Origin: Escherichia coli
GTDB taxonomy: Bacteria; Pseudomonadota; Gammaproteobacteria; Enterobacterales; Enterobacteriaceae
Assembly (NCBI RefSeq): GCF_003334405.1
Contig: NZ_QOWM01000003.1
Reading direction: 5' to 3' (one strand)
DNA length: 64,000 nucleotides
Shown: positions 58,906-59,544 of the stretch, piece by piece
Layout: the number at the start of each line of letters is the position of its first letter
Position numbering within the stretch: the first letter of the stretch is position 1
Program-made: the position numbers and the translations under genes
The notes under the pieces: model-generated
What the model saw: the letters and a program-made list of their open reading frames with translations, nothing else
What the model was told of the DNA's origin: nothing
Database searches by the model: none

Positions 58906-59082
58906 GTGAAACAAAGCGAGTTCAGACGTTGGCTCGAATCTCAGGGCGTCGATGTAGCGAATGGCAGCAACCATTTGAAACTCAGGTTTCATGGGAGGCG
59001 CAGTGTCATGCCGCGTCACCCCTGCGATGAGATTAAAGAACCATTGCGTAAAGCAATCCTGAAACAACTCGGTTTGAGTTAA
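58906..59082 (+). CDS. hicA: HicA toxin (mRNA interferase) of HicAB type II TA system
   Basis: 58-codon ORF with GTG start: (M)KQSEFRRWLESQGVDVANGSNHLKLRFHGRRSVMPRHPCDEIKEPLRKAILKQLGLS; ends 24 nt before hicB; too short for the ORF track. Confidence 0.75.
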   Translation: MKQSEFRRWLESQGVDVANGSNHLKLRFHGRRSVMPRHPCDEIKEPLRKAILKQLGLS

Positions 59083-59127
59083 TCGCCAATTAAAAAGGTT
59101 AATGACATGCGAGAGACAGTCGAAATT

Positions 59128-59544
59128 ATGCGTTATCCCGTCACTCTTACACCCGCGCCGGAAGGCGGTTATATGGTTTCTTTTGTGGATATCCCTGAAG
59201 CGTTGACCCAGGGCGAAACTGTCGCTGAAGCGATGGAAGCGGCAAAAGATGCTTTACTGACCGCATTTGATTTTTATTTTGAAGATAACGAGCTTATCCC
59301 TTTACCTTCGCCATTAAATAGTCACGATCACTTTATTGAAGTACCTTTGAGCGTCGCCTCTAAGGTATTGCTGTTAAATGCTTTTTTACAGTCAGAAATC
59401 ACTCAGCAAGAGTTAGCCAGGCGAATTGGCAAACCTAAACAGGAGATTACTCGCCTATTTAACTTGCATCATGCGACAAAAATCGACGCCGTCCAGCTCG
59501 CGGCAAAGGCGCTTGGCAAAGAGTTATCGCTGGTGATGGTTTAA
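59128..59544 (+). CDS. hicB: HicB antitoxin
   Basis: 138-aa form from ATG 59128 (MRYPVTLTPAPEGGYMVSF...); alternative ATG 59107 gives 145 aa; RNase H-like fold plus C-terminal DNA-binding domain. Confidence 0.8.
   Translation: MRYPVTLTPAPEGGYMVSFVDIPEALTQGETVAEAMEAAKDALLTAFDFYFEDNELIPLPSPLNSHDHFIEVPLSVASKVLLLNAFLQSEITQQELARRIGKPKQEITRLFNLHHATKIDAVQLAAKALGKELSLVMV

Follow-up and report, generated by a model that had tools for sequence, protein, structure and literature searches.

The chromosomal hicAB toxin-antitoxin operon of Escherichia coli K-12 and the GTG start of its hicA gene

Gene content and identity of the locus

The window analysed here is the whole stretch of 64,000 nucleotides from E. 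coli (assembly GCF_003334405.1, contig NZ_QOWM01000003.1; one strand, 5' to 3'), and all positions are counted from its first letter. Two short genes, hicA and hicB, were found near its end in the following setting.

56401-58362, plus strand: rlhA (from the MG1655 RefSeq record, in window coordinates)
58454-58684, minus strand: yncJ (from the same MG1655 record, in window coordinates)
58906-59082, plus strand: hicA (yncN), GTG start, 58 amino acids, mRNA-interferase toxin; RefSeq CDS WP_000813794.1
59128-59544, plus strand: hicB (ydcQ), 138 amino acids as curated, antitoxin and repressor; RefSeq CDS WP_001270286.1
59623-61029, plus strand: ydcR (again from the MG1655 record, in window coordinates)

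Over the 921 bp of positions 58700-59620, identity to E. coli K-12 MG1655, and likewise to many other E. coli, was 100%; a match to this segment was contained in 5416 of 5426 complete genomes. The genes around hicAB, that is rlhA, yncJ and ydcR, form the same set as in K-12. We regard it as practically certain that the locus is the hicAB operon of the E. coli K-12 chromosome, a type II toxin-antitoxin system in which the toxin gene precedes the antitoxin gene, and nothing in the evidence counted against this identity. The first-pass annotation, made from the letters alone, had already read the region as a type II hicAB pair, and this reading is borne out by Pfam matches for both products, by identity to PDB entries and by the RefSeq annotation.

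The layout is that of a toxin-first type II system: hicA is followed by hicB on the same (plus) strand. As had been claimed, the toxin frame ends 24 to 45 nt before hicB, the spacer being 24 nt if hicB starts at ATG 59107 and 45 nt if it starts at ATG 59128. For comparison, homologous loci (given below by L numbers where needed) were drawn from plasmids, phages and species-representative genomes. The genomes were scanned by a plain DNA pattern for the hicA C-terminal motif KAILKQLG, and about 27 loci with both genes were obtained (local tblastn), in which hicA and hicB are arranged as in the window. In Citrobacter sp. NCU1 (L129, about 4450-7400) yncJ and hicA lie about 2.9 kb apart, versus about 220 nt in E. 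coli.

The HicA and HicB proteins

GTG 58906-58908 opens a frame of 58 codons that ends at the stop codon TAA 59080-59082. A profile search, which had been proposed as the check on this short frame, matched its product to the Pfam family HicA_toxin (PF07927) with an E value of 3.7e-7, residues 5-57 aligning to model positions 3-58 of 58; the absence of a HicA-family match, which would have spoken against the toxin, was thus not what we found. The product is also identical, in 58 of 58 residues, to chain A of PDB entry 6HPB ('mRNA interferase toxin HicA'). The translated frame has His at position 23, and His23 is the sole known catalytic residue of E. coli HicA (PMC8138530). HicA was reportedly shown by Jorgensen et al. 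2009 to be a translation-independent mRNA interferase that causes growth arrest on expression; induction of hicAB transcription by starvation is cited in PMC11951105.

The downstream product was matched by two Pfam families. Its N-terminal domain belongs to PF15919 (HicB_lk_antitox; E=1.3e-7, residues 10-74 of the 145-amino-acid form) and its C-terminal DNA-binding domain to HTH_3 (PF01381, Xre-type; E=2.8e-7, residues 95-141). HicB is identical to 6HPB_B and 6HPC in its 138-amino-acid form and to 6U0I in its 145-amino-acid form plus tag. It is described as a folded antitoxin that covers His23 of HicA and also represses transcription (PMC8138530). In the literature it both binds and neutralises the toxin (complex structure 6HPB) and represses the second promoter of the operon, P2 (PMC8138530, PMC11594946, PMC10767902).

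When the NCBIfam HMMs were searched, no family was found at E<=0.001 for HicA or HicB. RefSeq nevertheless names both genes, so its naming must rest on other evidence, and the absence of an NCBIfam match has no bearing on membership of the Pfam families or on the identity to the PDB entries.

The hicA-hicB spacer and the start of hicB

In most homologues the hicA stop codon is directly followed by a hairpin rich in G/C (for example aaaccagcccttcggggctggtt), which is similar to the internal terminator that PMC11878559 reports for plasmid hicA^T B. Spacers with such a hairpin were observed in L005, L006, L007, L011, L013, L037, L040, L048, L050, L059, L066, L067, L076, L083, L090, L091 and L122. 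The K-12/Citrobacter lineage has no hairpin after hicA and has instead a spacer that contains a Shine-Dalgarno-like (SD-like) motif, with ATG 59107 in frame after it; a terminator scan of 58600-59700 returned no terminator-like sites. Copies of this Escherichia/Citrobacter lineage with an intact hicA have 43, 44, 45 or 47 nt between the two genes.

ATG 59107 and ATG 59128 share one frame, which ends at 59544, and are separated by the following element.

59107-59127, plus strand: seven codons in frame with hicB, beginning at its alternative start and reading MRETVEI; with them HicB adds up to the 145-amino-acid form

The first-pass annotation had left the choice between the two ATGs undecided, and this doubt proved well placed, since the public records are themselves split. 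The 138-amino-acid form is given by RefSeq, by Swiss-Prot (HICB_ECOLI, the UniRef representative) and by 6HPB, the 145-amino-acid form by 6U0I, TrEMBL C3TAR7 and most automatic ENA/Logan gene calls.

We consider translation from ATG 59128 more likely than translation from ATG 59107 only. Every homologue examined begins at the Met of ATG 59128, with the sequence M-x-Y-P or close variants of it (M-R-Y-Q in L064 and L121, M-L-R-[FY]-P in two Cupriavidus copies), and those outside the Escherichia/Citrobacter lineage all start there. Just upstream of this conserved Met most homologues have a stop codon or no start codon, and Superficieibacter, whose HicB is 76% identical, lacks the upstream ATG.

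The alternative is that HicB translation in Escherichia and Citrobacter starts mainly or in part at ATG 59107, giving a protein of 145 residues with a 7-residue N-terminal tail, and we rate it at somewhat below an even chance. The translation signals lean towards it: ATG 59107 is preceded by an SD-like AAGG with a spacer of 7-8 nt (dG -3.4 kcal/mol), while upstream of ATG 59128 there is only GAG with a 13-nt spacer (dG -3.0 kcal/mol). In this family, however, the conserved hicB ATG often has a weak or poorly positioned SD in front of it, so the weak SD at 59128 says little. An ATG exactly seven codons upstream and in frame occurs in all the Escherichia copies that were examined, K-12, APEC E956, E. 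whittamii and L049 among them, and in two syntenic Citrobacter species (loci whose ydcR and rlhA are 88% and 91% identical, respectively); these amount to just about three independent lineages. The tails across these copies read MRETVEI, MRESQII and MRDFTEI, with a CGA-to-AGA change that retains Arg, and the 21-nt tail region is free of indels whereas the 24 nt upstream of it vary in length. On the other hand, the four codons in the middle of the tail have diverged as much as non-coding spacer, with 10 of 18 nt shared between K-12 and Citrobacter NCU1. The 145-amino-acid protein folds and was crystallised as 6U0I, and this form is the usual pick of automatic gene callers; the shorter form was taken by Swiss-Prot, by RefSeq and by the group behind 6HPB. 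A 2-bp indel in APEC E956 was considered as a discriminator of the two starts and was discarded, as it lies upstream of both ATGs.

Use of ATG 59107, alone or alongside ATG 59128, is a possibility that falls a little short of even. The same tentative weight goes to the idea that in Escherichia/Citrobacter the hairpin was replaced by the SD-like spacer and the new ATG 59107, in which case HicB might be wholly or partly the 145-amino-acid protein and the curated 138-amino-acid start would be incomplete. ATG 59128 is kept here as the preferred start. The choice is a small annotation issue, which touches the design of constructs more than the biology of the system.

Translation signals of hicA

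The GTG start of hicA has the following signals around it.

58895-58901, plus strand: hicA Shine-Dalgarno sequence AGGGAGG, 4 nt before the GTG
58904-58909, plus strand: AUGUGA start-stop; ATG 58904-58906 is out of frame and overlaps the GTG by one base, and TGA is at 58907-58909

GTG 58906 is the first possible start codon past the preceding in-frame stop. The 58-codon HicA frame that had been proposed to begin at this GTG was found at its coordinates in the sequence, the RefSeq CDS has the same limits, and the homologues share its N-terminus, which is kept in about 30 loci of other genera. It had further been stated that the sole ATG nearby is immediately followed by a stop. This is true of ATG 58904, which runs into TGA, and it does not extend to a second ATG at 58866, 40 nt upstream and in another frame, which opens an ORF of 54 amino acids out of frame with hicA.

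The SD of hicA is strong. Its duplex with the 3' end of 16S rRNA was calculated at -11.1 kcal/mol, and values of -8 or lower were reached by just 2.8% of the plus-strand ATGs of the window. In 24 genome loci that were scored, the hicA start codon was GTG in 20, TTG in two and ATG in two, and a strong GGAGG SD with a short spacer preceded hicA in almost all of them. The same GTG/strong-SD design was found in Arsenophonus and Aeromonas plasmids, in a Mannheimia phage and in Cronobacter phage ENT39118. The non-ATG start is thus a conserved trait of this subfamily. A GTG start placed a short spacer behind a strong SD plausibly keeps translation of the toxin low.

Cronobacter phage ENT39118 (NC_019934.1, L011 292-468) has an intact GTG-initiated hicA of 58 amino acids, VKQSEFKRWLAAQG..., which is left unannotated upstream of an annotated 'HicB-like' gene. 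The remark in the first-pass annotation that such a toxin gene is easy to miss is fair in view of this phage.

Table 2 of PMC9841429 names 18 E. coli genes with an atGTG start, hicA among them. It could be argued that ribosomes initiate at AUG 58904, terminate at once at the TGA and then do or do not reinitiate at GUG 58906; toxin translation would thereby come under a further control. The AUGUGA is present in the sequence, RF2-dependent termination-reinitiation occurs at AUGUGA reporters and at narQ if the spacing favours the 5' codon (PMC9841429), and the abundance of HicA is very low, 0.021 ppm (PaxDb, in PMC9841429). For hicA itself, however, the same paper gives the SD as GGAGG, at an aligned spacing of 12 from the annotated start and with no ambiguity predicted, and the AUG lies a mere 2 nt past the GGAGG core. 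Nor is the overlapping ATG kept in homologues: the start reads gcgGTG in Aeromonas, gaaGTG in Serratia and, with an ATG in frame, aatgGTG in Arsenophonus. We consider this start-stop control improbable and retain direct initiation at GTG 58906.

rlhA (ydcP) is annotated from GTG 56401, which likewise stands in an AUGUGA context (aATGTGAcc; window 56399-56404), and it is also included in the atGTG table of PMC9841429. An in-frame GTG at 56359, 14 codons upstream, gives a longer rlhA ORF.

An imperfect 14-nt direct repeat, CAGGGAGGCGATGT at 58894-58907 and CAGGGCGTCGATGT at 58942-58955 (86% identical, 48 nt apart), was also noted. Its first copy falls on the hicA start site, its second within hicA. 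It was set aside as probably due to chance.

Promoters and operator

According to accounts of Turnbull & Gerdes 2017 in PMC11594946, PMC8138530, PMC6957337 and PMC11878559, hicAB is served by a pair of promoters, P1 and P2. They describe P1 as a Sxy-dependent promoter with a CRP-S site, from which hicA and hicB are both expressed, and excess HicA as relieving the repression of P2. P2 is described in PMC11594946 as repressed by HicB via the operator hicO, located in P2. A passage of PMC11878559 has the K-12 P2 leader begin 1 base ahead of the ribosome-binding site of hicA, and the P2 mRNA accordingly yields HicB and not HicA.

Two elements of the window may correspond to the operator and to P2.

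58856-58873, no strand assigned: perfect inverted repeat GTAAACA-ctaa-TGTTTAC, candidate hicO at P2 (from a repeat search)
58879-58887, plus strand: TGaTATACT, extended -10-like, candidate P2 -10, with TATACT at 58882-58887

The repeat at 58856-58873 may be the HicB operator hicO. Most homologues have the sequence (R)TAAACA-N4-TGTTTA(Y), or a close variant, about 50 nt ahead of the hicA start, often with a second copy near -84, and this conserved placement supports an operator role. It is probable that the inverted repeat seen across genera is the HicB operator of the family. Operator-like repeats were observed in L040, L048, L059, L066, L072, L076, L083, L086, L090, L091, L129, L006, L011 and others; variants such as GTAATCA-N4-TGATTAC occur, and there are often two copies about 33 nt apart that overlap the -35/-10 region.

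TATACT 58882-58887 is a candidate -10 element of P2. It is kept in E. whittamii, and Citrobacter NCU1 has TATAAT in the same place. A transcript starting about 7 nt past TATACT (about 58894) would begin 1 base before the hicA SD, in agreement with PMC11878559. A generic promoter scan of 58600-59700 did not report this P2 candidate, because it has no good -35. For P1, a degenerate 16-nt CRP-type pattern gave 227 matches across the window versus 284 expected in shuffles and was uninformative, the matches listed one by one ending short of the region upstream of hicA, and no convincing 6-nt-spaced CRP-S site was seen by eye.

These features fit the regulation described in the published accounts. 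There, the upstream promoter P1, with its CRP-S site and activation by Sxy, gives an mRNA from which both HicA and HicB are made, and the downstream, HicB-repressed P2 gives an mRNA for HicB only. HicB neutralises HicA by covering His23; surplus HicA frees HicB from the operator, and the antitoxin is thereby replenished.

Allelic variation and decay of hicA

We surveyed the alleles in 40 evenly spaced genomes from the 5416 with a match. hicAB was intact in most of them. In six of the 40, hicA lacked 22 bp (window 59023-59044), flanked by the 4-bp direct repeat TGCG; this deletion frameshifts hicA and leaves hicB intact. The shortened gene is annotated as 'mRNA interferase', and the record of E. 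coli CV839-06 (L003) marks it as 'frameshifted'. Another eight, including Nissle 1917 (L002), ST131 and related strains, had a 444-bp deletion (window 58862-59305). Lost with it are the operator-like repeat's right arm, the candidate -10 of P2, the whole of hicA and about 59 codons at the start of hicB, its N-terminal half; an annotated hicB pseudogene fragment with the HTH part is left. Query coverage was below 80% in 1167 of the 5416 matching genomes. Loss of the toxin in these strains is ordinary decay of a chromosomal toxin-antitoxin pair.

In L049 (an 'E. coli' species representative) hicA appears to be disrupted by an early stop, and in Citrobacter sp. Cu233 (L072) it also appears disrupted, with its C-terminal part aligning in a second frame; hicB is intact in both. 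These look like further cases of decay that begins with the toxin.

Although hicA does decay in parts of E. coli by the 22-bp and 444-bp deletions, the notion that the 58-codon frame is a chance ORF or a decayed pseudogene here, with hicB alone functional, has next to no probability and is refuted by the intact K-12 allele of the window, whose product has the same sequence as the HicA that was crystallised (6HPB_A) and studied for its function, by the Pfam match, by the strong SD and by the homologues conserved across genera.

Comparison with known systems

The hicAB of the window is already known in every respect, the GTG start and the AUGUGA context included. Its importance is small, as hicAB of K-12 is a textbook type II system whose structures have been solved and whose two-promoter control has been worked out. 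What the case does illustrate is that a short GTG-initiated toxin gene, of the kind that annotation can miss, is recoverable from raw sequence.

The window and the HicA-HicB of E. coli K-12 (yncN-ydcQ; 6HPB, 6HPC, 6U0I) represent the same locus, with identical DNA, identical proteins for both genes and identical neighbours. There is no difference between them, and the public records disagree only on the start of hicB. The K-12 system was reportedly studied in Jorgensen et al. 2009, Turnbull & Gerdes 2017 and Manav et al. 2019.

The hicA^T B genes of IncI2 mcr-1 plasmids (PMC11878559) and the other hairpin-bearing copies resemble the window in gene order, in the GTG start and strong SD of hicA, in an operator-like repeat upstream and in a HicB with an HTH domain. 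Unlike the window, hicA^T B and the hairpin-bearing copies on chromosomes, phages and plasmids have a G/C-rich hairpin directly after hicA. In hicA^T B this plasmid hairpin is reported to act as a terminator between the genes, with a higher toxin:antitoxin ratio as the result (PMC11878559).

The toxTA system of Haemophilus influenzae (PMC6957337) follows the same logic as hicAB: the toxin gene precedes the antitoxin gene, the two are expressed together from a CRP-S/Sxy promoter, and an internal promoter repressed by the antitoxin gives antitoxin only. Its proteins, however, are unrelated to HicA and HicB, the toxin being of the RelE/ParE type, and its P2 is located within the toxin gene, whereas P2 of hicAB lies just before the ribosome-binding site.
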